Shown here piece after piece: positions 16,993-58,722 of a stretch of 64,000 nucleotides of DNA; the stretch's first letter is position 1; the number at the start of each line of letters is the position of its first letter. The notes below the pieces were generated by a model. That model saw only the letters and a program-made list of their open reading frames with translations. It did no database searches and had not been told where the DNA came from. The DNA is taken from the NCBI GenBank assembly GCA_011056555.1, contig DSEQ01000021.1, forward strand, positions 1 to 64,000. The letters run 5' to 3'. Origin of the DNA: Candidatus Zixiibacteriota bacterium. Its GTDB lineage: Bacteria; Zixibacteria; MSB-5A5; JAABVY01. The position numbers and the translations under genes are program-made.

Positions 16993-17834
16993 GAAATCCT
17001 CCTGAGCACATCGATCATTAAATCGGTGATATTGGACCTTATCTCTTTTATATTTTTCTCTGTTATCATGTCCTGCCAGTGACCGAAAGCAGGACAGCCA
17101 CCAAACCAATGCACTCCGATCGTATGCGGCAGGATGAGAATGTCATTTTGGCCATAGAGCAGACCGGCCCTTCCCGGAGGGACCGGATAGACCGAATGAA
17201 AGGGAATATTTGATATCACGCAGTCCTCAACTTCACGCTTTCCCGGCCAATAGAATCTATCCAGCACCCTGCGGCCGGCGCTCTGATAATCCGCGGGATC
17301 GAAATGAGAGAGTGCCAGTTTGAAGACATCGGAAAAGAAGCTCCAGCCGTCTTCAATTGCTGAGAAGAGAAAGCCGATGCTGTGGTAGCGCTCGCGCCGA
17401 GGGGTGGTATGGCAGCAGACCCCCACATCGGCACCTGGACGGACATACAGGGCCGTCATCGGCCGAATATATAGGATATCGAAGTCTGACCATATCCCGC
17501 CTTCTTTGCCGAGAATATACCAGCGCAGGAAATCTGACTTGAATACTTCCGCGATTTTATCATCGACACCGATCTCAGTGAAATTGAATTGCCTGATTGA
17601 AATCCGGGGCAGCTGTACCAGGTCCGGGAAATAGTCCCTTATTTCACGTGACCTCGAGAACTTATGCTCTTTGGTTGTCCAGGTGATTGCAGATGATGAT
17701 TTTTCCGGATAATGTACGATCACATCATAATCCGGGTTAAAATGGACAAACGACCGCACCGTCAGGTAGCGCATGAAAGTCAAGGGCACATTCTTTCCCC
17801 AGTAGAGGTGCAATATTTTTGGAATCTTATGCAT
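16989..17834 (-). CDS. glycosyltransferase, DXD sugar-binding type (Gly_transf_sug-like)
   Basis: IPKILHLYWGKN N-terminal motif; DFDI. Confidence 0.45.
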   Translation of the reverse strand: MHKIPKILHLYWGKNVPLTFMRYLTVRSFVHFNPDYDVIVHYPEKSSSAITWTTKEHKFSRSREIRDYFPDLVQLPRISIRQFNFTEIGVDDKIAEVFKSDFLRWYILGKEGGIWSDFDILYIRPMTALYVRPGADVGVCCHTTPRRERYHSIGFLFSAIEDGWSFFSDVFKLALSHFDPADYQSAGRRVLDRFYWPGKREVEDCVISNIPFHSVYPVPPGRAGLLYGQNDILILPHTIGVHWFGGCPAFGHWQDMITEKNIKEIRSNITDLMIDVLRRIS

Positions 17835-19405: not shown

Positions 19406-20487
19406 TCATACGCTTCCTTTATTCTGTTCGGGTCCTTGGATGTGAGAGCCGAATTGATTATCTCCTCAAATTTCGGGCTCAAAATGTCATAGGAATAATG
19501 CAGCAGCTTCAGATAAGCTCCAATATGTCTGCTCCCGATTTCAGCTATTGGCATAACTCCGGATTTATCGAAGAGTAATTCTGAGCCTTGAAAGAAATTG
19601 ATGGTCCCGGGATCGATATCTATATATCCCAGCAGGGACAAATATATTTGATGGAGGCAGTGCCTTTTGAACAGCCGCTCCTGATTTTCTTTATATTTGA
19701 ATGGTTTTGCTGAACATCTTTTTTCATACCAGCCGTCCTCTCCAAAGGCGACCAGGCCGTTGCTCACGGGCGAGCTGGCAGCTATAGAGATGTCGACCTG
19801 GTTGTTATCGACATAGTCATCGTGCTTAAATCTTTTAAATATCAATCCGTTTTCTCGGAGACCCAGGCGGCCAGCTTCCCTCCGCTTCCAGAGAATAAGA
19901 TATCTCTCCGGAGTATATCTGGTGGTGGAATGTATGCCCAAAAGGTCAAAATGAGATTTCATGCGGAGTATGAATGAATCATAATTCCGGAGATATTTGT
20001 CCGGCTGAGCCTGGAGGTCGGGGCACTGGATGTTTATGGGGCCCTCGGTCAGCACCAGGTCGCTTGAGAGGGCGGCCAATTTATTAATCCAGGCATTGCT
20101 CCCGATTTCCCTGTATAGATGATGCGGTCCGTTGCCTATAAATATTCTGTCGAAGCTGATAGAGTCATGAAAATCTCGGAAACTCACATTTTTGAAGTCA
20201 TAATTGCCGGGGTAGCACCGGGCCACCTTGCTGCATAAATCGATCGCCAGCCAGTCTGAATCTATCCCGGTTATCTGTTCGAAGTCCTTTCTGTGGGCGA
20301 AACAAAAGTATCCTTTTGAGCAACCGATATCCAGGAACCTCTTACCCTTGAAAAAGGCGGGGAAATGTCTGCCCATTATACCTGTGCGTTCCGCCAACAC
20401 CTCCGTGGCCCTGGGCTCCGGCTCGAGGCTGTAGGTATGAGTGGGCGGATAGCTCCGGTTTATATGTTCCTGCAGATCCAGCGTCAT
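19384..20487 (-). CDS. class I SAM-dependent methyltransferase-like protein
   Basis: FLDIGCSKGYF motif I. Confidence 0.4.
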   Translation of the reverse strand: MTLDLQEHINRSYPPTHTYSLEPEPRATEVLAERTGIMGRHFPAFFKGKRFLDIGCSKGYFCFAHRKDFEQITGIDSDWLAIDLCSKVARCYPGNYDFKNVSFRDFHDSISFDRIFIGNGPHHLYREIGSNAWINKLAALSSDLVLTEGPINIQCPDLQAQPDKYLRNYDSFILRMKSHFDLLGIHSTTRYTPERYLILWKRREAGRLGLRENGLIFKRFKHDDYVDNNQVDISIAASSPVSNGLVAFGEDGWYEKRCSAKPFKYKENQERLFKRHCLHQIYLSLLGYIDIDPGTINFFQGSELLFDKSGVMPIAEIGSRHIGAYLKLLHYSYDILSPKFEEIINSALTSKDPNRIKEAYEWLRSRF

Positions 20488-21578
20488 TATAAAAAATTCC
20501 CATGCATAATTTTTGATGACTCAATCAGTTTATTCATGTTCCTGTTTTTGTCGTTGAACTGACAGCGAGGACATTCCCTGGCATCAAAGGCCTCCAGGTA
20601 GTCCTTTCTTTTTTCGCCCCACCACAATTCACTGAAGCTCTGATCCTTTAAGGAGCCGATCAAGCCCCGCCGGGTATAAGCCAGTACACAGCAGCAGTAT
20701 AGATTGAGGTCGGCACCTATGTACGGCACAAAATGCTGATGCGGACAGCGACTGTATTCAGGATGTCCCTGCACTAATTCGCCCATGCGATCCGAGAAAT
20801 TATTGATTACCTTGAATTCGCCAGTAGAAAGCCACTCGGCTTCTTTGCACAGGGCTGCAGCCTGGTAATGAAAGCCCACAAAATAAGCCGCATTCTCGGG
20901 CTGGAATACAGCGGACAGGCGTATATTATCGACGCCCAAAGATCTGGCCAGCTTCACTCCCGGGATGATTTCCTGCCAGTTGTCTTTATTGACGACATAG
21001 CCTATGCCGATTGTCAGATCTGAACCGCTTTTATCCCGCGCATCGACCAGGGCGCGGATATTTTCCAGGACCTCATGAAATGCCCTTTCGGGAGCTCTTC
21101 TCATTTGATGATATGATTCCGGAGAAGCGCAATCGAGCGAGATTCGGATCCAGGTGGAACCCAGGATTGCAGACCTTATCTCCTTATTCAATTTCCACCC
21201 ATTAGTGACCAAAGCGGTATCCAATTTAAGCTGATGAGCTCTGTTAATGAATTCAGCGCAATCCGGGTGAAGTGTCGGCTCTCCGCCTCCGGTAAATTGT
21301 ACTGCTTTGACTCCTGCGCTTTTCAATTCTTCCAGGATCCTGATCACCGTATCATAATTAATCATTCGATTGGGATTTCGAACGAGTTTGCCGCTGCCGT
21401 TGCGAATAGCAAAGAACTCGGTATATCCATCTATTCTATAAGCGCAAAAAGAACAATTCTGATTGCAGAGATCCGATATAATCAGGTGCGTGTGAATCGG
21501 GGCTGGCAATTTGCCATCCCGCAGTTCCAATAATCTGTCCATATGCAGAAGGGCTTTGTTGTACGAATAAGGATTCAA
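20487..21578 (-). CDS. radical SAM protein with SPASM-like C-terminal Cys cluster
   Basis: CNQNCSFCAY (CxxxCxxC); C-terminal CCCVLAY...CPRCQF. Confidence 0.6.
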   Translation of the reverse strand: MNPYSYNKALLHMDRLLELRDGKLPAPIHTHLIISDLCNQNCSFCAYRIDGYTEFFAIRNGSGKLVRNPNRMINYDTVIRILEELKSAGVKAVQFTGGGEPTLHPDCAEFINRAHQLKLDTALVTNGWKLNKEIRSAILGSTWIRISLDCASPESYHQMRRAPERAFHEVLENIRALVDARDKSGSDLTIGIGYVVNKDNWQEIIPGVKLARSLGVDNIRLSAVFQPENAAYFVGFHYQAAALCKEAEWLSTGEFKVINNFSDRMGELVQGHPEYSRCPHQHFVPYIGADLNLYCCCVLAYTRRGLIGSLKDQSFSELWWGEKRKDYLEAFDARECPRCQFNDKNRNMNKLIESSKIMHGNFL

Positions 21579-22270
21579 GTTCTGGCTCCTTTCATCCAGG
21601 CAGGAACAGGCTTTATTTCATGAGGGCGAGGTCTTCCGTGAAAACAGACAATCCTGCAATCATGCGGCAGCCTGCCGGCTTTTAGAACATGGACTTTGTA
21701 GCTGCAAATGCCGGAAAAAATATCCTGCGCCATTATGATCTCGGGATCCCCTCTGTTTTTCAACAGGTCGCGCAGCCATTCCTGGTCGCCCCTGAAACTG
21801 CGTCTCTTATTGTTCAGAAAAAGCGCCCTCGGGGTATGCTTGAAGTGGCCGTCTGAAGCGAATTCCCTGAAGGTTTCATAAATCCAGAGCAATGAGCCAT
21901 TCCAACCCATGATTCCGGAGCATATATCCTTGCGATAAAAGCCCCGCAGCATCATCAGGGCATTATGTGACTCACTTATCCAGGAGCCCAGAGGATTAAT
22001 GTCTCCGACTATCACGGTATCAAGGTCGAGGTATAGGGCCGGTCCCATCAGTGCAAACATCTCTATTTTTGACCACCATCCCGGCCAATCATAATGGAGG
22101 GGAACGATCTCATCCAGAACAAGACGACGAAGTTTATATGGATCTTCATCAGTCAGGCAGACGAATTTATGCGGGAGAGTCAAATGCTTCATAACGCCCA
22201 GCGCCAGCCTGCGGACATATTCGATGCTGTAATCACCACCGGTTCTATACACGCACACCACCTTGATCAT
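21575..22270 (-). CDS. nucleotide-sugar transferase-like protein (GT8-like DxD)
   Basis: LYLDLDTVIVGDI resembles the GT8 DxD region; weak. Confidence 0.3.
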   Translation of the reverse strand: MIKVVCVYRTGGDYSIEYVRRLALGVMKHLTLPHKFVCLTDEDPYKLRRLVLDEIVPLHYDWPGWWSKIEMFALMGPALYLDLDTVIVGDINPLGSWISESHNALMMLRGFYRKDICSGIMGWNGSLLWIYETFREFASDGHFKHTPRALFLNNKRRSFRGDQEWLRDLLKNRGDPEIIMAQDIFSGICSYKVHVLKAGRLPHDCRIVCFHGRPRPHEIKPVPAWMKGART

Positions 22271-22890
22271 ATGAGATCCTCCAAAGCCACCTTGGGAAAG
22301 ACATCGAGCGCGCTGTCAAGACAGGCATTGAAGCACTCAATGTTTTTCTGTTTAAGAGAATGGGCGATATCCGGAAATGGTCTCAAAAACCTCGGATATG
22401 GATTCTTCCCTTTCGGGTTTGCAGGAGGATCATAATCATCATGATAATTATATCTGCCCTCCACCACTCTCATATCGAAGCCCAGAAGGATTATCCGCTT
22501 CACTCCGAAATGATAGGCCAGGCCGATAGCGCAGGCTCCCGAGCTGAGATTCCAGGCCAGAATTGAGGGGGAGGTTGATAGTCCCCGAATCTTATTCTGC
22601 CTTTTGACCACCTTGATGCCGGGCTTATCCAGATGCTGTTCGCAGGTGGTGACCTTCAGGCCGGCAAAGCTCAGGAGCTGCTTGGCGTGCATGTTGTACC
22701 ATCGGCAGTCTCCAAAAAAAAGGCAGTCGATCCAGTCGGCCATCCGGTAGGCGTTATTAACGGCAATGATCCGTTTGCCACGCAACCGTTTGATATCGAA
22801 ACCGCGCAGGCTGGGACCGCCTCCTATGATAAAGCATTCCCCCTCCGGCCAGAGCCTGGGGACTGTCCAGTAACCCGAAGGGCCCTTCAT
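22267..22890 (-). CDS. DUF115 / Maf-like (MptE-like) protein
   Basis: FIIGGGPSL motif characteristic of the DUF115 family associated with flagellin glycosylation. Confidence 0.45.
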   Translation of the reverse strand: MKGPSGYWTVPRLWPEGECFIIGGGPSLRGFDIKRLRGKRIIAVNNAYRMADWIDCLFFGDCRWYNMHAKQLLSFAGLKVTTCEQHLDKPGIKVVKRQNKIRGLSTSPSILAWNLSSGACAIGLAYHFGVKRIILLGFDMRVVEGRYNYHDDYDPPANPKGKNPYPRFLRPFPDIAHSLKQKNIECFNACLDSALDVFPKVALEDLI

Positions 22891-47705: not shown

Positions 47706-47915
47706 TCAATATGCATCTCTCCCGTGAATCGGATCCTCCGGGACATAGCATCCATCTATGAATGACTGAATGTCCCGGGCGCGCCACCTGACCGGTCCAC
47801 CCTTGCCGGAGAGCCGAATCACCGGCAGCTTTCCGATCGAGGTCCACTTACGAAGGGTATTCAATTTGATGCCCAGAATCTCGCAGACTTCTTTTGATGT
47901 TAAGAGCTTATCCAT
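47706..47915 (-). CDS. xis: excisionase/AlpA-like HTH protein
   Basis: LLTSKEVCEILGIKLNTLRKWTSIGKLPVIRL...RWRARDIQSFI matches the excisionase-family HTH pattern. Confidence 0.5.
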   Translation of the reverse strand: MDKLLTSKEVCEILGIKLNTLRKWTSIGKLPVIRLSGKGGPVRWRARDIQSFIDGCYVPEDPIHGRDAY

Positions 47916-48143: not shown

Positions 48144-48386
48144 TCATGCTCTAAGTTCGTTATTCTCCTGCTTAGCGCTATTACCTGATGATCGCTTGAT
48201 CTCGCTGTCAGAGGCCTTCGGTGTCATGTCATTCTCGCTTATGACGAGATCGCCATCCGAGTTAATAGTCATTTTTAACCTATTATCTCCTGGCTCGATT
48301 CCTTTTGCTTCAAGCCACCATTTTGGCACATACGCAGCCGTAGGCTGGCTTCCGGCCGAGACATTTATTAATTTTGTCCAATTCAT
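48144..48386 (-). CDS. AbrB/MazE-family (SpoVT/AbrB) DNA-binding protein, Cro-position regulator
   Basis: Start set at MNWTKL; VPKWWLEAKGIEPGDNRLKMTINSDGDLVI swapped-hairpin motif; first gene leftward of the divergent switch region. Confidence 0.4.
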   Translation of the reverse strand: MNWTKLINVSAGSQPTAAYVPKWWLEAKGIEPGDNRLKMTINSDGDLVISENDMTPKASDSEIKRSSGNSAKQENNELRA

Positions 48387-48402
48387 ATATTCTCTTTCAA
48401 TC

Positions 48403-48454
48403 AATAATATATTATTCAAATCATCAGCTACACCCCGATATATAATAATATATT
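48403..48454. promoter_or_regulatory. candidate operators: 11-bp direct repeat AATAATATATT x2 in the divergent switch region
   Basis: Copies at 48403-48413 and 48444-48454; a TTGACA hexamer at 48503 lies close to the repressor ATG. Confidence 0.3.
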
Positions 48455-48538
48455 CGGCATTGTCAAGGGCAAATTCCGTTTTTTTTATGGATTTTCTTAT
48501 TCTATTTGACAACAACAAGTTAATAGGTCAAATATATT

Positions 48539-48991
48539 ATGCAAATGGCAGAAAATATTAGAAAGCAGTTTCTAAAGGGATTCGGAGCCCGTCTTTTAAA
48601 ACTCTATTCAGAGTCAAATTTTCGATCTTATGCTCACTTTGCAGATAAATTGCGAGAGACCGGCTTTGAAGTAACGAATGATACTGTTTCCAAATGGATG
48701 AGTAAGGAGCCCAGCGAACCAAGAGCATCGGCTATCGTGGCATTATCCAAAGTGTTGAATGTCTCAGCAGATTATCTATTGACTGGAAAAGAACCAGAGT
48801 CCAAAGATGAGAATTTAGCGAAGTTATTGAAGTATTTAAATGATATAAAAAACCAAGCAAACGATTTATCCGATCCCCGGTTACAGCAGTACGCCAGGAG
48901 ATTTGCGGCTCTTCCTGATAATCTGAGGGAAGCAGCGGAGCAGCTTCTTAGGGCTATGGAGGAGGTAGCCAAGAAAAAGCTGGAAGAATAG
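48539..48991 (+). CDS. XRE-family HTH repressor (CI-like)
   Basis: SYAHFADKLRETGFEVTNDTVSKWMSK...LSKVLNVSADYLL; divergent from lytic genes; no S24 peptidase domain. Confidence 0.55.
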   Translation: MQMAENIRKQFLKGFGARLLKLYSESNFRSYAHFADKLRETGFEVTNDTVSKWMSKEPSEPRASAIVALSKVLNVSADYLLTGKEPESKDENLAKLLKYLNDIKNQANDLSDPRLQQYARRFAALPDNLREAAEQLLRAMEEVAKKKLEE

Positions 48992-49174
48992 ATGACCCAA
49001 CCATAGAACCACGATCGGGGATCATTATGTCGAACAAGTCCAATGTGCGGACACGGAAGGACTGCGTTTTAGGGTATGTTTTGTCATTGGCAGTATGTCA
49101 TGCAAATCTTAAAAAAAATCTAAAAACAAGAGTCATTTTGTAATCAAATGAAGATCACTTTAGGGGAGGTTTAG

Positions 49175-49831
49175 ATGAAAAGAATGTCATTTTTTGCAGT
49201 TCTAACCTTGTTTTTAGCTGTGCCCGTTTGTGGCCAGGATTACGCCGCGGAAGACCATCACTATGGTTTCCATTTTGGAGCGGCTTACTCGAATTTCCAG
49301 GATGACAAGCTGGAAATTGAAATAATAGAACCTGACGATATAATCACTTTCTATCTGGGAGGCAGTTTATTCTTTTACGAAATATTTGCATTGGAGGTAT
49401 CAGTCAGCTATGCCAAAGAATCTGTCTACGAGGTCGCTTCCGGAGCAGCTGTCAATTACGGCGACTTTACTCAATTTCCGATTTCAGTATCGGCAAAATT
49501 GTATAATAACCCGGAGGGAGGGAAAGTCCGGGCTTTCCTGGCGGCTGGCATGAGCTATTATTTTCTGGACTTCGACCAAAGTCAGTATCTCACAAATATA
49601 TATTCTGATGTCTACGGGGTGACCGGAAAAGTAAAAGTTGAAAACGAACTGTCACCTTTTTTTGCAATAGGCATCGATATATTCATCTCCCACAATGCGG
49701 CAATAAGCTCCCAGATCAAATACACTTGGTTAAATCCGAGAGTTACGCTCCCGATCCCAATGATCTGGGATGAGCATCTAAAGGTTAACCCCTTCACTAT
49801 CTCCCTGGGATTTTCTCTTTATGGCGGATAA
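49175..49831 (+). CDS. small outer-membrane beta-barrel protein (Lom/OmpX/OmpW-size)
   Basis: Signal peptide MKRMSFFAVLTLFLAVPVCG; strong SD GGGGAGG; Gly/Tyr-rich alternating strands. Confidence 0.5.
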   Translation: MKRMSFFAVLTLFLAVPVCGQDYAAEDHHYGFHFGAAYSNFQDDKLEIEIIEPDDIITFYLGGSLFFYEIFALEVSVSYAKESVYEVASGAAVNYGDFTQFPISVSAKLYNNPEGGKVRAFLAAGMSYYFLDFDQSQYLTNIYSDVYGVTGKVKVENELSPFFAIGIDIFISHNAAISSQIKYTWLNPRVTLPIPMIWDEHLKVNPFTISLGFSLYGG

Positions 49832-49892
49832 AACAAGGTGTAATTTGCGAGAACAAATGAGCCAACACAAAACTCTTCAGAAAGGAGTGAAT

Positions 49893-50129
49893 ATGGCAGA
49901 TTTCGAAGTTCGGATCCTTAATCACGACCTGGAACCGATTCAAGGCGTCAGAGTCAGACTGGAATTCACACCACTCACAAGAGGTATGACCGGCGAAGAG
50001 TACACTGACTCAGACGGGGTGGCAATGTTCTCCGGTTTTGATGAAGGTGAAGTCAATGTCTATGTGGATCACAGCGATTACGGCAGCTATCGATACGAAG
50101 ACGGAGGCAGCATAACAATCACAAAATGA
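49893..50129 (+). CDS. hypothetical small beta-rich protein
   Basis: ATG at 49893 with AGGAG 7 nt upstream; 78 aa; followed by GGGAGGGAGGC/GCCTCCCTGCC hairpin at about 50195-50232. Confidence 0.35.
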   Translation: MADFEVRILNHDLEPIQGVRVRLEFTPLTRGMTGEEYTDSDGVAMFSGFDEGEVNVYVDHSDYGSYRYEDGGSITITK

Positions 50130-50404
50130 GCAATTCTCTGCTTCCCCGCAGCGGAGACCTGAGGACCGATAAAGGGAGGGAGGCTTTTGCAGGCCTCCCT
50201 GCCGAAGATAGGCAGAAATAATGGATGGAGATTACAAAAGAAGACCGCAAGAAACAGCAATTTCATTTATGTGACGGTGGTAGTTTTGACTTGCATTCCC
50301 GCACGAAACTGATAAATTGATAACGTGGTGCTGCTGGCTTCAGAGGGAAATAAGAGCCGACTTCTTTTGGTCATCCTGATATTTTTAGAGCTTAGGCATA
50401 GATT

Positions 50405-51508
50405 ATGAAAAGACTAATTTACATTCTTAGAGACAATAATATTGAATGTCTTCCTAATGAGCGCTTCACACTCGATGTAGAAATGTTTCCAGAATACAGT
50501 GAGGAACCCGTGTTCCCCAAGCAGGTATTATTCGAATCTCCCAAATTGAAAGCCGGAAAGAAATCAGTTCCTGAAGGCGTGCATTCTATGTTTCGATACT
50601 TTCTTGATGGTTCCCAGCGCTCACACCGCGTCATTGATGCCAGTTTCGGGAGTCATTATCTTCCAATATGTGCCGGCCAAATCGGAGTGGCCGTTCTCGA
50701 GAGATTGGATTCTGGCCGCATGGTCCCCCGGAAGGATCTAACCCGAGTCGAAAACATACTTGCAGTTCCCAATGTGATCGGGCAGGATAACGCAAAGGAC
50801 CTTGAGCAGAAAATCAACAAGGAAATGTCGAAAAATGATCACTTCCGCATAGTGCGTTATGATTACCAAACGAAAGATGATAAAGATCCCGCAGACCTCG
50901 GAAGAGCGATGATCATCCATGAAATGCAGATGCTCGAATTGCGCACCATTAGGGACATGATCACTAATCAGGCAATCCAAGAGGATAAGATGTTGGCAAA
51001 GGACGGAGGCCTTCAATATCGCGACACTAAAATCAAAGATCTGAATCTCTCAAAAGATGACCTCGTCCAATTGAGAAATGTGATCGGCTTAGCGAAGACA
51101 TTTAAGCCTAACATGACGGTCGGTCAGGGGCGGGGTCGCCAAGATCTTGGCAATTTGACCAAAGGTCTTGATTGGAAAGAACGAACGACTGTCATAAGTC
51201 CAAATAAAGATGAGATAACAGCTCATGGCTGGTGGTACCTTCGCCTTCGACCGCGTGAGAAAGTCTATAGTCCGCTCCAGGGAATCGCCAAAATAGAAGT
51301 ATTTGCCTCTGATGAAGAAAAAGAGAATGATGGGATTGCTGAAGCACGAGCCGATACCATTTCTTCATACGTCTTGCGAGAGCGCAATGTCACTGCTTAT
51401 AATGCTGATAAACGCTGGGCGAGTCATATTTATCCGATATTTTTAGCCGAGACATATTTGCGTTCTTCTTTTCTCAGTCATGAAAGATTTAAAGCAATGA
51501 TTATTTGA
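50405..51508 (+). CDS. candidate system gene A: putative NurA-like nuclease (tentative)
   Basis: 367 aa; FLDGSQ motif at D68 resembling the NurA DGS hallmark, with downstream acidic residues E99 and D111; gene order (immediately upstream of a HerA-like ATPase) parallels NurA-HerA and effector-HerA systems. Inference only. Confidence 0.35.
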   Translation: MKRLIYILRDNNIECLPNERFTLDVEMFPEYSEEPVFPKQVLFESPKLKAGKKSVPEGVHSMFRYFLDGSQRSHRVIDASFGSHYLPICAGQIGVAVLERLDSGRMVPRKDLTRVENILAVPNVIGQDNAKDLEQKINKEMSKNDHFRIVRYDYQTKDDKDPADLGRAMIIHEMQMLELRTIRDMITNQAIQEDKMLAKDGGLQYRDTKIKDLNLSKDDLVQLRNVIGLAKTFKPNMTVGQGRGRQDLGNLTKGLDWKERTTVISPNKDEITAHGWWYLRLRPREKVYSPLQGIAKIEVFASDEEKENDGIAEARADTISSYVLRERNVTAYNADKRWASHIYPIFLAETYLRSSFLSHERFKAMII

Positions 51509-51521
51509 AAGGGGAAATCCC

Positions 51522-53210
51522 ATGCCCGAAAAAGAATGTATCGGAAAGGTCACCGCGACCGAAAGCAAACCAACCACCTGTACCAGCGTTTACTTCTGGC
51601 TAAGTCCGGATGTTATCATTCGCCCCTTTGACCTCGTGAGGATTGGACACATCTCCGGAGATGGAAACAAAAAAAGCTACTCATATGCAATAGTTCGGGA
51701 ACTCAGCTACATCACAGATAGCGTAGGCCACCTGGCAAATTACGTCTCTTCCGATTTCGGTGATATTAATGCGCATCCGATCAATGAACGGCTTGGAACC
51801 ACGATTGCTGAGGCGGATGTTCTCGGGAACAGCCAGAATATCGAGATGCCGATTCGAGACGGTGCGCGTGTAGAATGGGCGGGACCTGAGGAAATTAGAA
51901 GCGCCCTGGGAGTCGAAAATCTTATAAAGCCTATTCCTGGAGGCTATATTCGTACTTCGAACAAAGAGGAAATCCGCATTGATTTCGAGGCCCGATATCT
52001 CGTTGGCCCCGAGGCAGCTCACATAAACATTTCTGGAATCTCTGGTTTGGCAAGCAAAACATCTTACGCAATGTTTCTTTTAAGCGCATTACAGCAACGT
52101 ATGCAAGACGAAGTAAGCATCATTCTATTCAATGTCAAAGGCCCTGATTTGCTGGCCGTTGATCAGCCGAATGCCTCGATGAGTGAGACACACCAGCAGG
52201 ACTGGAGAAAATGCGGTCTTGAACCGCGGCCACTTGAAAACGTCACCTATCTCTATCCCTATGCCAAGCGTCCGGACCGCTTCTTTACTTCAAGCCATGC
52301 CCCCAATGACGTTATTCAATTTCAAATTGAGCAAAACCAGGCTTTCAATTATTACTACGACGTAGAAACATTTAAGGGTGGTGAAGAAGGCAGTGAGACT
52401 GATGTTGGACGCGATAAGATGTCGCTTCTCTTTTCTGACATTGATGATCCACAATCTACCATGGAAAGCTGTATTCATGAACTCGGAGAGATTCAAGCGG
52501 AGACGTGGGAGAAACTGAGAGAAGAAATCCATGCCAAAACTGAGAAAGGGCAAACCGGACGAAAAGAGATCTCGGTTCAATCCTGGCGCAAATTCAGTCG
52601 GCTAATTCGAACACGAACCACCCATGACATTTTCTCGTCCAATTATTATGGTGAGGACCGGCGCCAAAAGCTCATTGTGGATGCAATTAAGGATTTGAGG
52701 CCCGGAGGAATTCTTGTTGTGGATATCGCTCCCTTACCTGATTATCTTCAATGCTTGGTTTTTGGAGATGTAATCCGAACCGTTTTTGATGCAAAACTCG
52801 ATCTATACGAGAACATTAAAAAAGAAGATTTGGGAAGAGTTGTCATCTTTGCAGATGAATTAAATAAATACGCACCTTCCACATCCGGATCCCGGGATAG
52901 GACTCTCACCCGCTGGCTTCTGGAAATAACTGAACGAGGACGTTCGCTCGGAGTAGTCCTATTTGGTGCAGAGCAGTTCAGAAGTGCTATTCATTCCCGG
53001 GTGCTCGGAAATTGCAGCACGGACGTATTCGGTAGAACAAATCCTGTTGAGCTCTCGAAGGCCCCAGACTACAGGCTATTCTCGCAATCCAATAAAGCTA
53101 CTGTTACAAGACTCAACCAGGGTCAAATGCTGCTTCAGCATTCTGTATTTAATACTGCATTAATAAAGGTTCGTTTCCCATATCCAGCTTATCGGCAGCT
53201 GCAGAGGTAA
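51522..53210 (+). CDS. candidate system gene B: HerA/FtsK-like ATPase with HAS-barrel-like N-terminus and deviant P-loop
   Basis: SD AAAGGGGA; N-terminal IGKVTATES...DLVRIGHISGDG; P-loop-like GISGLASKTS (Ser replaces the second Gly); Walker B VVIFADELNKY; FGAEQF in the ATQRP position. Confidence 0.5.
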   Translation: MPEKECIGKVTATESKPTTCTSVYFWLSPDVIIRPFDLVRIGHISGDGNKKSYSYAIVRELSYITDSVGHLANYVSSDFGDINAHPINERLGTTIAEADVLGNSQNIEMPIRDGARVEWAGPEEIRSALGVENLIKPIPGGYIRTSNKEEIRIDFEARYLVGPEAAHINISGISGLASKTSYAMFLLSALQQRMQDEVSIILFNVKGPDLLAVDQPNASMSETHQQDWRKCGLEPRPLENVTYLYPYAKRPDRFFTSSHAPNDVIQFQIEQNQAFNYYYDVETFKGGEEGSETDVGRDKMSLLFSDIDDPQSTMESCIHELGEIQAETWEKLREEIHAKTEKGQTGRKEISVQSWRKFSRLIRTRTTHDIFSSNYYGEDRRQKLIVDAIKDLRPGGILVVDIAPLPDYLQCLVFGDVIRTVFDAKLDLYENIKKEDLGRVVIFADELNKYAPSTSGSRDRTLTRWLLEITERGRSLGVVLFGAEQFRSAIHSRVLGNCSTDVFGRTNPVELSKAPDYRLFSQSNKATVTRLNQGQMLLQHSVFNTALIKVRFPYPAYRQLQR

Positions 53211-53212
53211 AT

Positions 53213-54781
53213 ATGATGTCCTCAAATTCTGAAAAAATGCCAAAGATAGGGGCATTCGTTCTTGAGACCCTAACCACCGGGATGTACACTAATTCTCTTG
53301 ATACGCTTAGGGAATATATACAGAATTCGTTCGATTCGATCCGCGAATCCGAACGAAGCAACAAATTGACATATGGAGCTGGTCGAATAGATCTCACAAT
53401 AGATGAAAAGAGCCGAATTCTCAAATTGCGTGATAACGGATTGGGCATTCCTAAAAATGAGGTGAAATCCCGGCTTGTTAATATTGGAATGTCTTCAAAG
53501 ACTATCCAGCATTATGCAGGCTTTCGCGGAATAGGGCGACTTGCTGGAATTGCATATTGCGACAGGCTTATTTTCACAACCCAGGCAAAAGATGAAAACG
53601 AATTTTCGCGAGTGGTATTTAACTGCCGAGAACTGCGCAACGCTATGTCTCCAAAATTAAAGCAAATTAGCGAATTGGCTGAGGTGATAAATGAGCATGC
53701 ATCTGTCACTAACGAGAAGACACGCAATAGAGGACATTTCTTTGAAGTTTTAATGGAGGGGATCAATGAGGCCGGACAGTCATTTCTGGACTGGAAGATT
53801 ATCGAAAATTACCTCAGCCAGATAGCTCCGGTCGGTCTTGATACACAATCCTTCTATCACGCAGGTGAAATCATTCAATGGCTGAAAAAGCGAAATATCG
53901 ACGTTCCGACGGTGAGCATAACAATCAATGCAGGATTAATGAAGCGCCAGGTTTTTAAACCGTATCGCAAGCTGACATATACGACCGCACAGGAGAAACA
54001 CAAAATACATTTGAAGAAGATACGTTTTTTCCCCGATGACGCTGGACCTGATTCTCCCTTCTGGGGTTGGTATGCTGAAACCAATTGCCCCGGCACAATT
54101 GGAGACGAGAGGGTTGCAGGAATTCGATTGCGAAAAGATAATATCGGCATTGGTATGGCGGAAAATATGACAAAGATCTTTGCTGAAGCTTCTGAAAGCT
54201 ACGCTCGACTCAATAAGTACTTCATGGGTGAGATCCATATTCAGGACCCGAATATTATACCAAATGCAAGGCGGGATGGATTTGAGGAGGGTCCGGAATG
54301 GTTGAAAGTTCGCCAATCGTTGGTTGAGTTCGCGAAGGAAAGAAGCCGAGAAGCATACCATTTATCACAAGCACGTAATTTGGACATTGAGAGGCTGCTT
54401 GGGGCTGCCAAGAGAGAGAAGGAATCTGCTCAAAAGAGAAAAAAGACTGGGTTGGCCTCCAAGGAGGAAAAAGAAAAGGTTCTTGGCAAGCTCGATAGGC
54501 AAATAGCGAAGCTCGAGGCTGCAAAAAAGTCTGATCGAGATGAGAATGAGCGGAAGCAGATAGATCGCACTTATAAAGAACTTCAAAATACCAGGCAGGC
54601 AATCGAAAACGAAACCCATTATGTGGCTCAGAATCTGAATTCAGCTCTGGATAAAAAGCAGAGGAAAATTATATCTGAAATAATCGGAATTCTTTATGAT
54701 GTGTTGGACGATGGATCATTCGAGAAGGCCCGTGCTGCGATCCTGGCAAAATATCAAATCCCAAACAAGAAGAGAGAGTAA
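53213..54781 (+). CDS. candidate system gene C: GHKL (Bergerat-fold, MORC/Hsp90/MutL-like) ATPase with coiled-coil C-terminus
   Basis: N-box EYIQNSFDS, G1 box LRDNGLGIP, G2 box GFRGIGRLAGIAY; C-terminal K/E-rich coiled coil. Confidence 0.55.
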   Translation: MMSSNSEKMPKIGAFVLETLTTGMYTNSLDTLREYIQNSFDSIRESERSNKLTYGAGRIDLTIDEKSRILKLRDNGLGIPKNEVKSRLVNIGMSSKTIQHYAGFRGIGRLAGIAYCDRLIFTTQAKDENEFSRVVFNCRELRNAMSPKLKQISELAEVINEHASVTNEKTRNRGHFFEVLMEGINEAGQSFLDWKIIENYLSQIAPVGLDTQSFYHAGEIIQWLKKRNIDVPTVSITINAGLMKRQVFKPYRKLTYTTAQEKHKIHLKKIRFFPDDAGPDSPFWGWYAETNCPGTIGDERVAGIRLRKDNIGIGMAENMTKIFAEASESYARLNKYFMGEIHIQDPNIIPNARRDGFEEGPEWLKVRQSLVEFAKERSREAYHLSQARNLDIERLLGAAKREKESAQKRKKTGLASKEEKEKVLGKLDRQIAKLEAAKKSDRDENERKQIDRTYKELQNTRQAIENETHYVAQNLNSALDKKQRKIISEIIGILYDVLDDGSFEKARAAILAKYQIPNKKRE

Positions 54782-56196
54782 TGCGAAATATACTCCTTGC
54801 GGAACCCGACTATAGATCGAAATTTCCACCTCTTGGGTTGATGAGATTATCCACGTATCATAAGAGTGAGGGAGATAATGTTACCTTTGTCCGCGGAAGA
54901 AATCCGGATTTGCGGTCGGTAAATTGGCACCGCATTTATATCTCATCGCTTTACACATGGGAATTGCCGCGCACATTGAAGACGATCAAGTACTATGGCA
55001 CTGCCGTAAATAATCCGAAGGATATCATCGTGGGCGGGACAGCTGTGACTCTTCTTCCACAATACATTCGAAGCAAGACAAATGTAACAGTTATTGAGGG
55101 CCTGCTGGATAGACCAAACATGCTTGGTATAGGATCAAAGGCCATCGCTAAACTCATTCCCGATTATTCTATCATAGAGGCAGTGCCGGATTATGAATAT
55201 TTCCCAGCAGATGCTTATTTTACCAAGATCACCAAAGGCTGTATACGCTCCTGTAAATTTTGCGCTGTGCCCATATTGGAAAGAAAATTCGGGTTCTTAA
55301 AGGATCTAAGAAGACAAATTGAAGATGTCAATGAAAGGCATGGGGAGAAGCAGAATCTTGTCGTGATGGATAATAATATTCTTGGTATTGACAGAATCCA
55401 ATCAATCTTCGATGATATAGCAAAGGTCGGCTTTGCCGCAGGTGCAATGAAAAACGGTAAAAAGCGGTCAGTCGACTTTAATCAGGGATTGGACGCGCGC
55501 CTGATTAATAAGGATCCGTCGCTTGCTGAAGGATTAGCCAGTATATGCACTTCTCCCGTCCGACTGGCGTTCGATTTTGTTGGCATGGAACGGCCATATC
55601 GGCGTGCGATTAAGATTCTCAGGCAGAACGGGTTCAATGAATTCACAAATTATATGCTCTTCAACTTCAAAGATGCCCCAGAAGATCTGTACAGACGAAT
55701 TTGGATAAATGCGGAACTGAATTCCGAATTGGGAATCAGGATCACCGGATTCCCGATGAGATTCATACCCATGGATGATATAAAGAGAAACCATATAGCT
55801 AAAAAATGGAAATGGAGATATTTAAGAGGCATCCAGTGTGTTCTCTTAGCAACCCGGGGGCTTATAAGTCCAAATCGCGAATTCACCCGGGCTGCTTTCG
55901 GGAGTTCTTTCAATGAATTTCTTGAGATTCTTTCCATGCCGGATAGATACATTATTTACAGGGAGGACTATAGGAATAATGGCGCTGATCAATGGCGCCG
56001 GCTCTTCCGGAGGCTCCGCCCACATAAGAGGGAGGAATTTCTGAATCTTCTCGAAGAGTTAAACAAGAGCTATCGCGATAGAAAAAAACGGATTGCAAAA
56101 TTCAATGGGCTATTTGGAAAGCTGCTGGAGCATTACTATCCAAATGGCGAAACGCCCCAGCGAAAGCCTAAACAAGACAGCCATTTCCAAGTTTGA
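54781..56196 (+). CDS. candidate system gene D: B12-binding-domain-type (class B-like) radical SAM enzyme
   Basis: N-terminal ILLAEP...FPPLGLMRLSTY resembling the B12-binding radical SAM N-domain; GCIRSCKFCAVP (CxxxCxxC); VVMDNNILG following; TAATG overlap with gene C. Confidence 0.6.
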   Translation: MRNILLAEPDYRSKFPPLGLMRLSTYHKSEGDNVTFVRGRNPDLRSVNWHRIYISSLYTWELPRTLKTIKYYGTAVNNPKDIIVGGTAVTLLPQYIRSKTNVTVIEGLLDRPNMLGIGSKAIAKLIPDYSIIEAVPDYEYFPADAYFTKITKGCIRSCKFCAVPILERKFGFLKDLRRQIEDVNERHGEKQNLVVMDNNILGIDRIQSIFDDIAKVGFAAGAMKNGKKRSVDFNQGLDARLINKDPSLAEGLASICTSPVRLAFDFVGMERPYRRAIKILRQNGFNEFTNYMLFNFKDAPEDLYRRIWINAELNSELGIRITGFPMRFIPMDDIKRNHIAKKWKWRYLRGIQCVLLATRGLISPNREFTRAAFGSSFNEFLEILSMPDRYIIYREDYRNNGADQWRRLFRRLRPHKREEFLNLLEELNKSYRDRKKRIAKFNGLFGKLLEHYYPNGETPQRKPKQDSHFQV

Positions 56197-56200
56197 TCAG

Positions 56201-56854
56201 ATGCTCTATATTTTTTTGGATGAAAGTGGAAACTTCGATTTTTCAGGGAGAGAGGGTCGGCAGTATTTTATCATTACGGGCCTGTCTGTTTTCCGCCCGT
56301 TTCCCTGCTTTGAGGAGCTTCTTGAATATCGACATGACTTGTGGGAGTCCGGTCAAGAAATAGAATACTTTCATGCAAATAATGATCAGCCTCACGTTAG
56401 AAAAAAAGTGTTTGAAATTATATGCAAACAATTAGGTAAACTCCAGGCGGACTCAATAATCTTAGAAAAACGAAAAACATACCCGCAGCTCCAGAAGGAT
56501 CGCGAGAGATTCTATAAAACATTTCTCGGCATTCTGCTCAAATATATCCTTAAGGGTCATACCTGGCATAATATAAAGGATATAGTAATGATACACGATC
56601 GACTTGCACCAGAAAAGAGAAAGAGGCTCTCGGACGCGATAAAGGATGCCCTCTTTTTTTGGGCGGACGACGTCGACGGCAATTATTATATAAATTTCAT
56701 CCAGTCCAAAGCCAGCTTTCTTTTGCAGATTGTGGATTATATAAACTGGGCTATAGCCCGAAAATGGGAATATGGCGATCAGAGTTTTTATGACCTAATC
56801 CAGCCGTGTATTAAGAGTGAACGTGATATCTTCAACTGGTGGAAGTACAAATAA
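56201..56854 (+). CDS. candidate system gene E: DUF3800 family protein
   Basis: Start at ATG 56201, 4 nt after the gene D stop (ORF track extends upstream via TTG); N-terminal MLYIFLDESGNF matches the DUF3800 hallmark YIDESG. Confidence 0.55.
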   Translation: MLYIFLDESGNFDFSGREGRQYFIITGLSVFRPFPCFEELLEYRHDLWESGQEIEYFHANNDQPHVRKKVFEIICKQLGKLQADSIILEKRKTYPQLQKDRERFYKTFLGILLKYILKGHTWHNIKDIVMIHDRLAPEKRKRLSDAIKDALFFWADDVDGNYYINFIQSKASFLLQIVDYINWAIARKWEYGDQSFYDLIQPCIKSERDIFNWWKYK

Positions 56855-56857
56855 AAT

Positions 56858-56920
56858 GGCCCTGACTACCTTTCGGGTGCCACAAAGGGCAAACATCATC
56901 AGGGCCGGAACAATAACTTT
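56858..56920 (+). terminator. possible structured terminator after gene E
   Basis: GGCCCTGA at 56858-56865 pairs with TCAGGGCC at 56899-56906; inner CCTTT/AAAGG stem; weak T-tract follows. Confidence 0.2.
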
Positions 56921-57049
56921 TCAATCAGTACGACGTCGTCTATATATAATAACGGAAATAAATCCAAATGTTCAAGTATTTTTTAGTAATTTTTTATGAA
57001 ATTTTTATGGAAAATGCAAGTCTTTGAAAGAAAGCAGGTTGACTGATAC

Positions 57050-58171
57050 ATGGCCCGGCCATACAAACGCGGAAATAAGTGGTATATATACGTCACCCAT
57101 AAGGGTCAGCGCGTCCGAAAGTCTATCGGTACCTCCAAGGCCCTCGCCCAGAAATATCAGAGCATGATTGAAACAGATCTGATGCGGGGAGAATTGAAGC
57201 TGGATGTATCCGATTGCTCAATCGAAAGGCTTTTCACCGATTACCTGGAGTACTCTGCCATCAATCATCGGCCCTCCACCACCAGGCGCTATGAGGGGGC
57301 AATCAGATATTTCCATATATTCCTCGGTCACTTTTATCCCCGGGTAAAACGGGTTGGCCAGCTCAGCCTGAATGTCTTCGAAAAATATAAGCATTTCAGA
57401 CGCACCACCGATCCAAAGTCAATCAATGCTCAGCTCTCCGGGGACATGAGATATCCAGCCAACTGCACCGTCGCGAAAACCAAAACCGTCAATTATGAAA
57501 TCAAAACCCTGAAGTCAGTTTTTGAATTTGGAATCAGGAGAGGCCTGTGCAGCGTAAATCCGGCCAGGGGGGTTTCGCTTCTCAGGATTGACGATGCTAA
57601 GCAGCCGCGTTTTTTGTCCGGAGATGAATGTCAGATTTTACTGGAGAATGCCGGTAGTGAATACCCCATTTATTTCACCTTATTAAATACGGGGCTTCGC
57701 CTGGGGGAGCTTCTGAACTTGCAGTGGAGCGATATCAATTTCTCACGGAAGGTGCTTATGGTGCGGGGCAAGAGCGACTGGAAACCCAAGGCCGGAGAAA
57801 GAGAGATACCACTCAATCAAGGGGTCTTGAATTTGCTTAGAGATATCAAGCCCAAACGGGCCCGGAAGTCCGATTATGTCTTTCAATTCAAGCGCCGGGA
57901 CACGGCCGCTCGGATATTGAGAAAGCGCCTGGCACGCCTCTGCAGAGAGCATGGTCTTGAGGCTTTTAGCCTGCATGATCTCAGGCATACTTTTGCCAGT
58001 CAGCTGGTGATGAACGGGGTCGATCTGGCAACTGTTCAGCAGCTGCTCGGGCATCGGGATATCCAGACCACCATGATCTATGCCCACCTGGCGCCCGACC
58101 ATTTGGCCGGGGCGGTCAGAAAACTCGATTCCATTCTGCCACAAATCTGCCACAAACGGGGTAAGACCTAA
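57050..58171 (+). CDS. int: tyrosine site-specific integrase
   Basis: C-terminal catalytic HDLRHTFAS and TTMIYAHL (Tyr); N-terminal SAM-like arm domain; ends 26 nt from the tRNA 3' end. Confidence 0.8.
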   Translation: MARPYKRGNKWYIYVTHKGQRVRKSIGTSKALAQKYQSMIETDLMRGELKLDVSDCSIERLFTDYLEYSAINHRPSTTRRYEGAIRYFHIFLGHFYPRVKRVGQLSLNVFEKYKHFRRTTDPKSINAQLSGDMRYPANCTVAKTKTVNYEIKTLKSVFEFGIRRGLCSVNPARGVSLLRIDDAKQPRFLSGDECQILLENAGSEYPIYFTLLNTGLRLGELLNLQWSDINFSRKVLMVRGKSDWKPKAGEREIPLNQGVLNLLRDIKPKRARKSDYVFQFKRRDTAARILRKRLARLCREHGLEAFSLHDLRHTFASQLVMNGVDLATVQQLLGHRDIQTTMIYAHLAPDHLAGAVRKLDSILPQICHKRGKT

Positions 58172-58197
58172 ATCTAAGTAATTGTCAAAAAACAAAA

Positions 58198-58271
58198 TAG
58201 CGGTGCAGGGACTTGAACCCCGGACACGCGGATTATGATTCCGCTGCTCTAACCAACTGAGCTACACCGCC
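58198..58271 (-). tRNA. tRNA-Met (anticodon CAT; elongator type, or lysidine tRNA-Ile2)
   Basis: Reverse complement folds as a cloverleaf: 7-bp acceptor stem, D-arm GCTC/GAGC, anticodon stem GCGGA/TCCGC with loop ATCATAA, T-arm CGGGG-TTCAAGT-CCCTG; no encoded CCA. Confidence 0.8.
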
Positions 58272-58518
58272 ATATTAGTCTAAATCCCTCAATTTCTGCC
58301 AGAGAGATTTTACAATCTATTAATTTATCGGGCAAAGTCAAGCAGATTTGAACCCGCCAGATTATATATATTCCTTAGCCTGCGAATTGTTCCCCGGCCG
58401 CCTGAATTCCTTCTCGAACGGCTTCCCCGGGACTGCATAAATAATTAGAATAAAAACATTTAGATACTCATAATAATTCAAATAAAACAAGATTTCGCAT
58501 CGATATCATAATAAGAGC

Positions 58519-58547
58519 TTGACATTTTTTTCACAATGTCCTATTAT
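58519..58547 (+). promoter_or_regulatory. sigma70-like promoter upstream of gdh (TTGACA-17-TATTAT)
   Basis: TTGACA at 58519-58524, 17-nt spacer, TATTAT at 58542-58547; about 175 nt upstream of the GDH start. Confidence 0.3.
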
Positions 58548-58722
58548 TCTGAACGAATTTTTGCAAGTGTGAAAGGATGCATCCGGAATGCATCTTATTG
58601 ATAACAAAAAAGTTATGAAGTTTGTATAAGAAGGGGGATATTTTTTCGGCTCCTCGAGGAGCTTTTTATTTTGCACTTTTTGTTTTAAAATGATGCTTAA
58701 AATTAACTGGAGTTAGTTCAAA

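Follow-up and report, generated by a model that had tools for sequence, protein, structure and literature searches.

The stretch of DNA analysed here, 64,000 nt long and called the window below (Candidatus Zixiibacteriota bacterium, contig DSEQ01000021.1, positions 1 to 64,000), is almost entirely a siphovirus-like prophage in a candidate division Zixibacteria genome. Its segment at ~48.1-57.0 kb is, with a probability of about three in four, a compositionally foreign block within the lysogeny arm of a prophage integrated at a tRNA-Met gene and, beyond the immunity genes at its left end, accessory cargo. The block reaches from a repressor-like gene to the integrase gene and carries a five-gene operon (g1 to g5; Table 1). 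On sequence grounds, the first four genes of this operon form a self-contained mobile module: a NurA-family nuclease (g1), a HerA-type ATPase (g2), a GHKL ATPase (g3) and a radical S-adenosylmethionine (radical-SAM) enzyme (g4). The original prediction had taken the segment for a slot between repressor and integrase in which prophages carry cargo genes, or morons. This reading is supported by a drop both in GC content and in GC content at third codon positions (GC3), by the occurrence of the module at low-GC loci outside phages, and by AT-rich islands on the opposite strand in unrelated phages.

The phage body is transcribed in a single direction. About 50 phage genes (125-47915), all of them on the minus strand, include those for a tail protein, a tape measure protein, the portal, the large terminase, a DnaB-type helicase and a fused SbcD-SbcC-like protein, and the presence of the tape measure, portal, large terminase, DnaB and SbcCD-like genes identifies the first 48 kb as prophage. 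As had been predicted, the genes between 48539 and 58171 all lie on the plus strand, opposite to the ~50 lytic genes. From left to right these are a repressor-like gene with a helix-turn-helix (HTH) domain, a gene for an OmpW-like barrel, a gene for a small protein, five packed genes (50405-56854) and the integrase gene. The five genes are separated by only 13, 2, -1 and 4 nt, the start of g4 overlapping the stop of g3 by 1 nt.

Neither the windowed GC profile nor the codon-position profile is flat: GC and GC3 both fall within the block. The GC content is 0.445 over 48539-58197 and 0.439 over 48539-56854, that is, with the integrase excluded, compared with 0.520 in the lytic body (1-48130) and 0.515 in the host genes. 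Among all 9.66-kb windows of the 64 kb, the one with the lowest GC starts at 47901 (0.438; window mean 0.503, standard deviation (sd) 0.030). The GC3 of the seven cargo genes is 0.448 ± 0.018 versus 0.611 ± 0.070 in 44 phage-body genes (Mann-Whitney p = 7.6e-5), and the difference holds against the early genes alone (p = 0.004). The drop in GC3 is uniform (0.41-0.47) over 8.7 kb of long enzyme-coding genes and stops abruptly at the integrase. The claim that the whole segment is richer in AT than the phage body and the host is thus correct for ~48.1-57.0 kb (GC 0.44), not for the integrase gene (GC 0.508, GC3 0.60). More exactly, the AT-rich tract extends from ~48.1 kb, where it takes in a minus-strand open reading frame (ORF) at 48144-48518, to ~57.05 kb. 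Since the composition of the integrase gene is that of the phage body, and also of the host, the integrase lies outside the tract.

The right-hand boundary is formed by the tRNA-Met gene, the 3′ end of which is 26 nt from the integrase stop codon. Because this 3′ end faces the integrase, the tRNA gene is presumed to be both the integration site and the right end of the prophage. To its right are host genes, including those for glutamate dehydrogenase and phosphoenolpyruvate-utilising enzymes. On the left, the block is bounded by the gene at 47706..47915, the last one of normal GC in the phage arm that runs leftward. The left end of the prophage falls outside the 64-kb window. Most likely, the cargo entered the phage at a point between the immunity region and the integrase gene that belongs to the phage itself.

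The identity of the host is supported by one protein of the block, which is 100% identical to an annotated protein of a metagenome-assembled genome from candidate division Zixibacteria. The identical prophage with the identical cargo is found in several samples (ERZ791560 and ERZ27245474 are examples), on several independent contigs, one of which (183 kb) runs on into host genes. The arrangement of repressor, cargo and integrase is the same on every recovered contig, and all recovered copies represent one prophage. A 58,413-bp contig with ends near both landmarks of the window was considered as a circular phage genome; it represents the integrated form. In one copy of the prophage, from a metagenome-assembled genome (L025; GCA_011048415.1, DSEB01000361.1), the radical-SAM gene is split into ORFs of 332 aa and 146 aa, either by an assembly frameshift or in a pseudogenised variant.

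Because the phage is without close relatives, the cargo status of the block is argued from the distribution of the operon. Homologues of g4 number more than 3796 and are ~60% identical across unrelated phyla; relatives occur in at least 498 species-representative genomes, which span more than 15 phyla, archaea among them, and the family comprises 1640 clusters at 50% identity. The neighbourhoods of the radical-SAM gene were compared at 80 genome loci. The full NurA-HerA-GHKL-radical-SAM set is present at 13 of them, usually in the gene order seen here, and at one further locus NurA and HerA occur with no detectable GHKL protein. At ~17 loci a GHKL protein is the sole partner detected. In ~17 complete loci the partner set consists of a 350-aa protein, a 141-aa protein, a SNF2 helicase and a 340-aa protein, and at 6 loci this SNF2 set occurs together with a GHKL protein; the remaining loci have no recognisable partner. 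Most loci with the long form of the radical-SAM gene are chromosomal or plasmid-borne, with no phage genes nearby. The four-gene module itself is found in chromosomal, integrative and plasmid settings in many phyla, and its GC content is lower than that of its flanks at 17 of 18 loci, by up to 19 points. Neither a conserved gene before or after the module nor a constant fifth gene was seen. The flanking genes encode integrases, resolvases, a WYL regulator, MazE, ParE, DUF3987, TraG, DNA methyltransferases, AAA_21, AAA_15 and UvrD proteins, as well as ordinary housekeeping functions.

The module has also entered other phages. It is complete on four viral contigs (L113, L118, L129 and L134). In L113 and L118 the module and three more genes form a plus-strand island with a GC content of 0.38-0.42, located between minus-strand endolysin, portal and protease genes on one side and the terminase gene on the other (GC 0.50-0.53). 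The phage of L113 and L118 is a different one and has no other gene in common with the Zixibacteria prophage. In L129 the module follows an HTH regulator gene, lies next to a primase gene and shows the same GC contrast. The moron reading draws its strongest support from these independent phage acquisitions, in which the module lies on the opposite strand and has a lower GC than the core genes of the phage. Moreover, homologues of g1, g2 and g4 lie beside a resolvase and a regulator gene in Marinitoga camini virus 1 (L190; KP836355, 37383-41209), a cultured temperate virus of Thermotogota.

A moron is expected to deviate from the phage core in composition and codon usage, to carry genes that also occur outside phages or in unrelated phages, and to be an autonomous transcription unit. 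The block deviates in both composition and codon usage, and its module is found in chromosomal, plasmid and unrelated viral settings. It is oriented opposite to the lytic operons and has stem-loops at two sites, with promoter and terminator scans at chance level. The features of the block and its borders are listed in Table 1.

Table 1. Features of the AT-rich block and its borders (positions in the window)
Feature	Position	Strand	Basis
Small HTH_17/MerR-like protein, 69 aa	47706..47915	-	Pfam HTH_17 at 4.4e-12; also called on other contigs
Uncertain ORF, 124 aa, GC 0.39	48144..48518	-	ORF list; AbrB/SpoVT-like motif by eye
XRE-family HTH regulator, 150 aa	48539..48991	+	Weak Pfam HTH_3 (6e-4) and Phage_CI_repr (2e-3)
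OmpW-family outer-membrane beta-barrel, 218 aa	49175..49831	+	Pfam OmpW 2.6e-8, above curated cut-off
Immunoglobulin (Ig)-like/CarboxypepD_reg-like beta-sandwich protein, 78 aa	49893..50129	+	Weak Pfam matches (8e-4), below cut-offs
Two GC-rich stem-loops 3′ of the small gene	50135..50203 (50135-50160, 50174-50203)	+	Fold, inverted repeat
g1, NurA-family (RNase H-like fold) nuclease, 367 aa	50405..51508	+	AlphaFold model, Foldseek, profile search
g2, HerA/FtsK-type hexameric ATPase-translocase, 562 aa	51522..53210	+	phmmer to D. radiodurans HerA 7f6d_B, 3.6e-36
g3, MutL/MORC-like GHKL ATPase, 522 aa	53213..54781	+	Pfam HATPase_c_3 9.2e-9, above cut-off
g4, radical-SAM enzyme, 471 aa	54781..56196	+	CxxxCxxC motif, model folds, PHROG 9298 at 6.7e-39
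g5, DUF3800 protein, 217 aa from ATG 56201 (236 aa from 56144)	56201..56854	+	Pfam DUF3800 2.5e-11
Stem-loop directly 3′ of g5	56858..56906	+	Fold of 56850-56999, GGCCCUGA...UCAGGGCC, z = -0.95
Tyrosine integrase, 373 aa	57050..58171	+	Pfam Phage_integrase 7e-35; PHROG 1 at 2e-71
tRNA-Met (CAT)	58197..58272	-	ARAGORN; Rfam tRNA 65.8 bits

Several observations weigh against the interpretation of the block as cargo or against the roles proposed for it. First, parts of the early region at 32-42 kb are intermediate in composition (GC 0.43-0.50), with some genes at GC3 0.44-0.50. The contrast is strong but for this reason not unique to the block, and AT-richness alone is no proof of cargo. Second, the repressor gene and the neighbouring minus-strand ORF have the same low GC as the rest of the block, so that part of the AT-richness may reflect an immunity or regulatory region rather than cargo. 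Third, no related prophage was found in phage records, IMG/VR or protein searches that could show variation of the slot between repressor and integrase. When the block was compared by megablast with 50,697 phage records, no nucleotide match was obtained. Single-protein scans of IMG/VR returned distant matches only (33% identity for the integrase, restricted to its catalytic domain), and those with the radical-SAM and SbcCD-like proteins returned nothing. A homology search for sister phages with the SbcCD-like protein recovered its own copies and matches of at most 27% identity, and among isolated phages no relative of the large terminase exceeds 48%. Fourth, PADLOC 2.0 gives no model or system-level match for the module, only weak HerA and mad8 matches and a DUF3800 match; nine matches to PADLOC defence families among 89 flanking ORFs are a modest signal, with no matched control. 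Fifth, the promoter and terminator scans of the window are at chance level. Finally, the phage body encodes a HerA-like protein, an SbcCD-like protein and two other radical-SAM proteins of its own, and relatives of g4 are not confined to cargo. An alignment-based scan of IMG/VR found radical-SAM relatives on at least 533 viral contigs, mostly short proteins (250-350 aa) encoded in early or replication regions (PHROG 9298) near genes for PAPS-reductase-like proteins, ASCH proteins and DNA methyltransferases. The position of these short relatives beside DNA methyltransferase genes in early regions suggests that the enzyme family may also serve phages. Examples are found in Clostridium phage phiCT453B, Bacteroides LoVEphage and Phocaeicola phage PV4-TP1, where the function is unannotated.

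These last data are also what favours the best of the alternatives, namely that the operon serves the phage itself, in end-processing or in the modification of DNA or nucleotides for replication or restriction evasion, and is merely located in the lysogeny arm. The role of HerA-NurA as a DNA end-resection machine (PDB 7f6d) would fit such a function, as would the phage's existing set of DNA-processing genes. This alternative is nevertheless unlikely. The operon runs counter to every lytic gene, and the immunity region separates it from the replication module. Moreover, the loci of the long form are mostly outside phages, and the composition of the module is foreign to this phage.

It could also be imagined that the block and the integrase together constitute a small integrative element of their own, an island or satellite that lies in tandem with the prophage at the tRNA-Met gene and is not part of it. 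The module does adjoin integrase genes at two non-phage loci (L004 and L008), its surroundings in L129, a primase-type gene and an HTH regulator, are satellite-like, and the left prophage end and any second integrase would fall outside the window. Within the 64-kb window, however, there is no second copy of the 3′ part of the tRNA gene or of integrase-proximal sequence and no attachment-site-like repeat longer than 13 nt; the longest match, 13 nt, is at chance level. A scan of 33 further phage ORFs revealed no other integrase or resolvase. The GC and GC3 of the integrase match the phage body and not the cargo. The block continues without a break into the repressor gene, the divergent early genes and the Xis-like HTH_17 gene, and every recovered contig repeats this arrangement. 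The block is therefore probably not a separate element, and an island of this kind is very improbable. Hardly more credible is the last alternative, that the low GC is a local functional bias in genes native to the phage, caused for instance by regulatory sequence, weak expression or strand effects. In its favour, AT-richness is common in immunity regions, and the early genes at 35463, 38078, 34080 and 38563 have a GC3 of 0.44-0.50. Against it stand the uniformity (sd 0.018) and the sharp end of the drop, and the occurrence in unrelated genomes and phages of homologous modules with the same low GC relative to their flanks.

The interpretation as accessory cargo of the lysogeny arm is thus preferred, and the segment as such is of an ordinary kind; its payload is unusual. 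Prophage morons and accessory genes of the lysogeny arm are exemplified by rexAB, sieB, lom and bor of lambda and by the defence hotspots of P2/P4-like elements. Like these, the block consists of dispensable-looking genes of foreign composition beside immunity and integration genes, transcribed against the lytic operons, and its load includes an outer-membrane protein and a nuclease-NTPase operon. It differs from them in its payload, a module that is not known from the phages named.

The identification of the four module proteins is based on folds, motifs and profiles. The AlphaFold model of g1 (predicted local distance difference test (pLDDT) 83.5) has as its top Foldseek matches the NurA of D. 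radiodurans (7f6d_G; E 1.3e-11, template modeling (TM) scores 0.55/0.60) and TM1739 (1zup; 1.5e-10), and a profile search aligns g1 collinearly with the 7f6d NurA (E 0.006). Invariant residues are D68 in a DGS motif, E178, D200 and H341, and some homologues carry the name NurA in UniRef. An RNase H-like fold, conserved acidic residues and a gene beside HerA, all of them expected of NurA, are thus present in g1. In g2 the translation reveals a Walker A-like motif (GISGLASKTS) and a Walker B motif (VVIFADE), as expected of a P-loop ATPase of the HerA/FtsK clade, and there are weak PADLOC matches to HerA (4e-4) and mad8 (3e-6). In g3 the Bergerat ATP-binding motifs that define GHKL proteins are intact when read from the translation (EYIQNSFD, DNGLG and GFRGIGRLAG). 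Its similarity to the N-terminal domains of MutL in PDB reaches 4e-5; the C-terminal 372 aa, two-thirds of the protein, have no Pfam match, and the tail is a charged coiled coil.

The radical-SAM enzyme g4 has an N-terminal Rossmann domain resembling B12-binding domains, a radical-SAM part and a C-terminal helical domain. The cysteines of its CxxxCxxC motif (C154/C158/C161) are invariant in 30 homologues and lie in a partial TIM barrel, as in other radical-SAM enzymes, with a Pfam score of 22 bits, below the gathering threshold of 29.5. The model (pLDDT 81) is nearest in fold to TsrM, OxsB, MiaB and RimO (TM 0.43-0.47, 10-14% identity). A methylthiotransferase of the MiaB/RimO type was considered and rejected: such enzymes have a TRAM domain and three N-terminal cysteines that bind an auxiliary Fe-S cluster, whereas the N-terminal domain of g4 is without three conserved cysteines, only C102 being nearly invariant, and the NCBIfam score is 20 bits against a cut-off of 357.

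The prediction of a five-gene operon holds as far as the tight array is concerned; it is composed of the conserved four-gene module and a DUF3800 gene unique to this locus. No DUF3800 homologue was found beside the radical-SAM gene at the 80 genome loci or at 80 viral loci. The ATG at 56201, 4 nt past the g4 stop, is probably the start of g5. The protein also matches DUF3800_VII of PADLOC (2.9e-9), and an RNase H-like nuclease fold has been predicted for the DUF3800 family by others (PMC10910872). The fifth gene, g5, is a local add-on to the module and encodes a predicted nuclease; it is probably co-transcribed with the module.

Orientation and context suggest that, in the lysogen, transcription of the block would run rightward, either together with the repressor gene or downstream of it. 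On the same grounds it is somewhat probable that the module shields the lysogen from other phages or from mobile DNA. Across the family, the radical-SAM core shows hardly any variation, the GHKL partner changes more quickly, and the nuclease or helicase partners are interchangeable. This pattern of modularity points to an action at the level of DNA. The GHKL ATPase might clamp or sense DNA. The radical-SAM enzyme might have a universal nucleic acid or nucleotide as its substrate and might either put a mark on self DNA or produce a modified nucleotide, and HerA-NurA might thread and degrade the targeted DNA. In sister architectures, the place of HerA-NurA would be taken by the SNF2 helicase set or by a PIN-like protein. 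Theoretically, the module could work in one of two ways. It could resemble a restriction-modification system, in which the radical-SAM enzyme marks DNA and its partners restrict DNA that is unmarked. Alternatively, it could be a sensor-effector system, with the GHKL clamp as the sensor of foreign DNA and HerA-NurA as the effector that degrades it. We tentatively suggest, as a conjecture that goes well beyond the cargo interpretation, that the operon could be one architecture of a large unnamed DNA-conflict family centred on radical-SAM enzymes and distributed over bacteria, archaea, plasmids and phages. In such a family the enzyme, mostly in company with a GHKL clamp, would carry out a new radical-SAM chemistry on DNA or nucleotides, exchangeable nuclease or helicase modules would restrict DNA according to the presence or absence of the mark, and the prophage would defend its lysogen with the system.

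Another architecture of the radical-SAM family is seen on the conjugative plasmid pNL1 of Novosphingobium aromaticivorans (L193, 114946-125348). This locus encodes a PIN-like protein, a GHKL protein, a DGQHR-domain (DndB-like) protein, the radical-SAM enzyme and a second GHKL protein, and a second, larger DGQHR protein is encoded on the opposite strand. In BLASTP the pNL1 DGQHR protein shows no link to the 340-350-aa proteins of the SNF2 architecture, and the latter are therefore not called DndB-like. Pfam searches with proteins of the sister architectures (352, 141, 341, 290 and 459 aa) gave nothing usable.

Comparison with known systems may provide some clues regarding the module. The operon is not described in the searchable full-text literature, although most subscription journals are outside such a search and an earlier description is possible. 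The closest likeness of g1 and g2 is to the HerA-NurA pair of D. radiodurans (7f6d), to judge from the values given above and from the adjacency of the genes, NurA followed by HerA. Unlike that pair, the one described here lies in a mobile prophage operon with GHKL and radical-SAM genes and not in a housekeeping repair locus. The defence systems Sir2-HerA and DUF4297-HerA (8xau, 9c1m) also combine a HerA-type hexameric ATPase with an effector enzyme in a mobile operon. Their HerA similarity to g2 is weak (5e-5 to 3e-2 in PDB, besides the PADLOC HerA match), and an assignment to this type (Gao_Her) is rejected, as Pfam and PADLOC find neither Sir2 nor DUF4297 in the operon. The methylation-associated defence system (MADS), a multi-gene set mad1-mad8 with a methyltransferase, is likewise rejected: apart from the weak mad8 match of g2 there are no other mad genes in the operon. 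A type VII retron with a DUF3800 effector was also considered; the block contains no reverse transcriptase domain, and Rfam, including the DUF3800-associated RNA motifs, finds only the tRNA above the gathering score.

Prokaryotic MORC-like GHKL proteins have been described in operons that resemble restriction-modification systems and also encode helicases and nucleases (Iyer, Abhiman and Aravind 2008, PMC2292703). The MORC/paraMORC systems resemble the module in having a MutL-like GHKL ATPase in mobile operons with nucleases or superfamily II helicases, and the SNF2 helicases of the sister architectures are a further parallel. In contrast, the obligate partner in the module is a radical-SAM enzyme, which is not mentioned in PMC2292703, and the likeness comes from the GHKL domain. 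The Marinitoga camini virus 1 proteins UF08_54 to UF08_56 are homologues of g4, g2 and g1, with identities of 31%, 31% and 24%. In this virus, however, no GHKL gene is detected, the radical-SAM gene converges on HerA-NurA, and there is no GC contrast, the whole region having ~25% GC; the function is unannotated.

Anti-phage operons in which a radical-SAM enzyme is essential are those of the viperins, of Ophion (bioRxiv 10.1101/2025.09.30.679545) and of HXS (PMC13128918). Their partners are unlike those of the module: viperins have none, Ophion has PHP and phosphoribosyltransferase (PRTase) proteins, and HXS has a repeat peptide. They differ also in fold class, g4 combining a Rossmann domain with a radical-SAM part. 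In particular, g4 is not a prokaryotic viperin (pVip), given the lack of a PADLOC match, its nearest folds and its extra N-terminal domain. The Dnd and Dpd systems share with the family the logic of a conserved modifying core with interchangeable restriction partners. Furthermore, DGQHR (DndB-like) proteins are encoded beside the pNL1 radical-SAM gene, and SNF2 helicases are found in sister architectures. Unlike in these systems, no DndACDE or DpdA homologues are present, and DNA modification by g4 is pure inference. Ophion, HXS and Dnd (reappraisal paper) were compared with the operon and are different systems.

At the left end of the block, the XRE-family HTH regulator at 48539..48991 is likely to be the prophage repressor, to judge from its homologies. 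It matches PHROG transcriptional repressors or regulators at 6e-9 to 9e-9 and DicA/RstR-like proteins of NCBIfam at 1e-5. A repressor of the lambda CI/LexA type was considered and rejected, since there is no S24 autopeptidase domain and the only matches to HTH_3 and the CI HTH domain are weak; an XRE-type regulator without the S24 domain may still be a repressor. The divergent ORF at 48144..48518 is ~20 nt away. It has no Pfam match, and it is called as a 123-aa gene on one contig and uncalled on the others. Two ORFs on opposite strands overlap just left of the repressor gene (48144-48561). Two pairs of inverted repeats, one near the repressor gene (48406-48416 / 48444-48454) and one spanning its start (48491-48510 / 48527-48546), could be operators. 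The HTH_17/MerR-like product of 47706..47915 is possibly an excisionase or an early regulator.

Two further genes lie between the repressor gene and the operon. The OmpW-like protein has an N-terminal signal peptide, read from the translation as MKRMSFFAVLTLFLAVPVCGQ, and its gene is preceded by a good ribosome-binding site (GGGGAGG). It has no match in PHROG or PADLOC; given its family and its signal peptide, a role in lysogenic conversion or in modifying the cell surface is plausible. The small gene has a ribosome-binding site, GAAAGGAG, before its ATG at 49893, and the 78-aa product is also called on other contigs. The stem-loops that follow it open the 275-nt gap before the operon. The fold of 50120-50269 has an energy of -41.1 kcal/mol (z = -1.72). 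The stem-loops have no T-run and are uncalled in the terminator scan, and they may terminate or separate transcription units. Beyond the stem-loop behind g5, an AT-rich spacer of 140 nt leads to the integrase gene. Hairpins had been said to punctuate the segment; they are present at both places and do not exceed chance in comparison with shuffled sequences, and the terminator scan found 12 sites versus 11.0 ± 3.6 expected. Outside the block, the interval from the tRNA to the glutamate dehydrogenase gene (58273-58722) is very AT-rich (GC 0.34) and contains a strong match to a sigma-70-like promoter (58519-58547) and a hairpin that resembles a terminator (58648-58663).

Two gene clusters of the phage body deserve mention. 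The DNA-processing set of the phage itself (37354-38106, 38563-40374 and 42083-45724, minus strand) includes a DUF5131 protein, a 603-aa HerA/DUF87-like ATPase labelled terminase-like in PHROGs, and the fused SbcD-SbcC protein of 1213 aa, which has no relative above 27% identity in 5.8 billion proteins. A second accessory-looking cluster (16989-22890, minus strand) lies inside the structural-gene region. It encodes a glycosyltransferase-like protein, a 523-aa radical-SAM protein (CNARCKFC), a methyltransferase, a 363-aa radical-SAM protein (CNQNCSFC) and two more proteins, one of them possibly MptE-like, and its GC is 0.496 versus 0.547 in the neighbouring head genes.

The setting is a poorly studied phylum, Zixibacteria, and a phage lineage without close relatives. 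The value of the locus lies in the family that it flags, a radical-SAM and GHKL family that travels on prophages, plasmids and islands and is absent from PADLOC 2.0. Marinitoga camini virus 1 could be an experimental handle on the module. If it is true that this family is a system of defence or DNA modification, it would represent a new enzymatic principle in the conflict between phages and their hosts, one that could be tested by heterologous expression.

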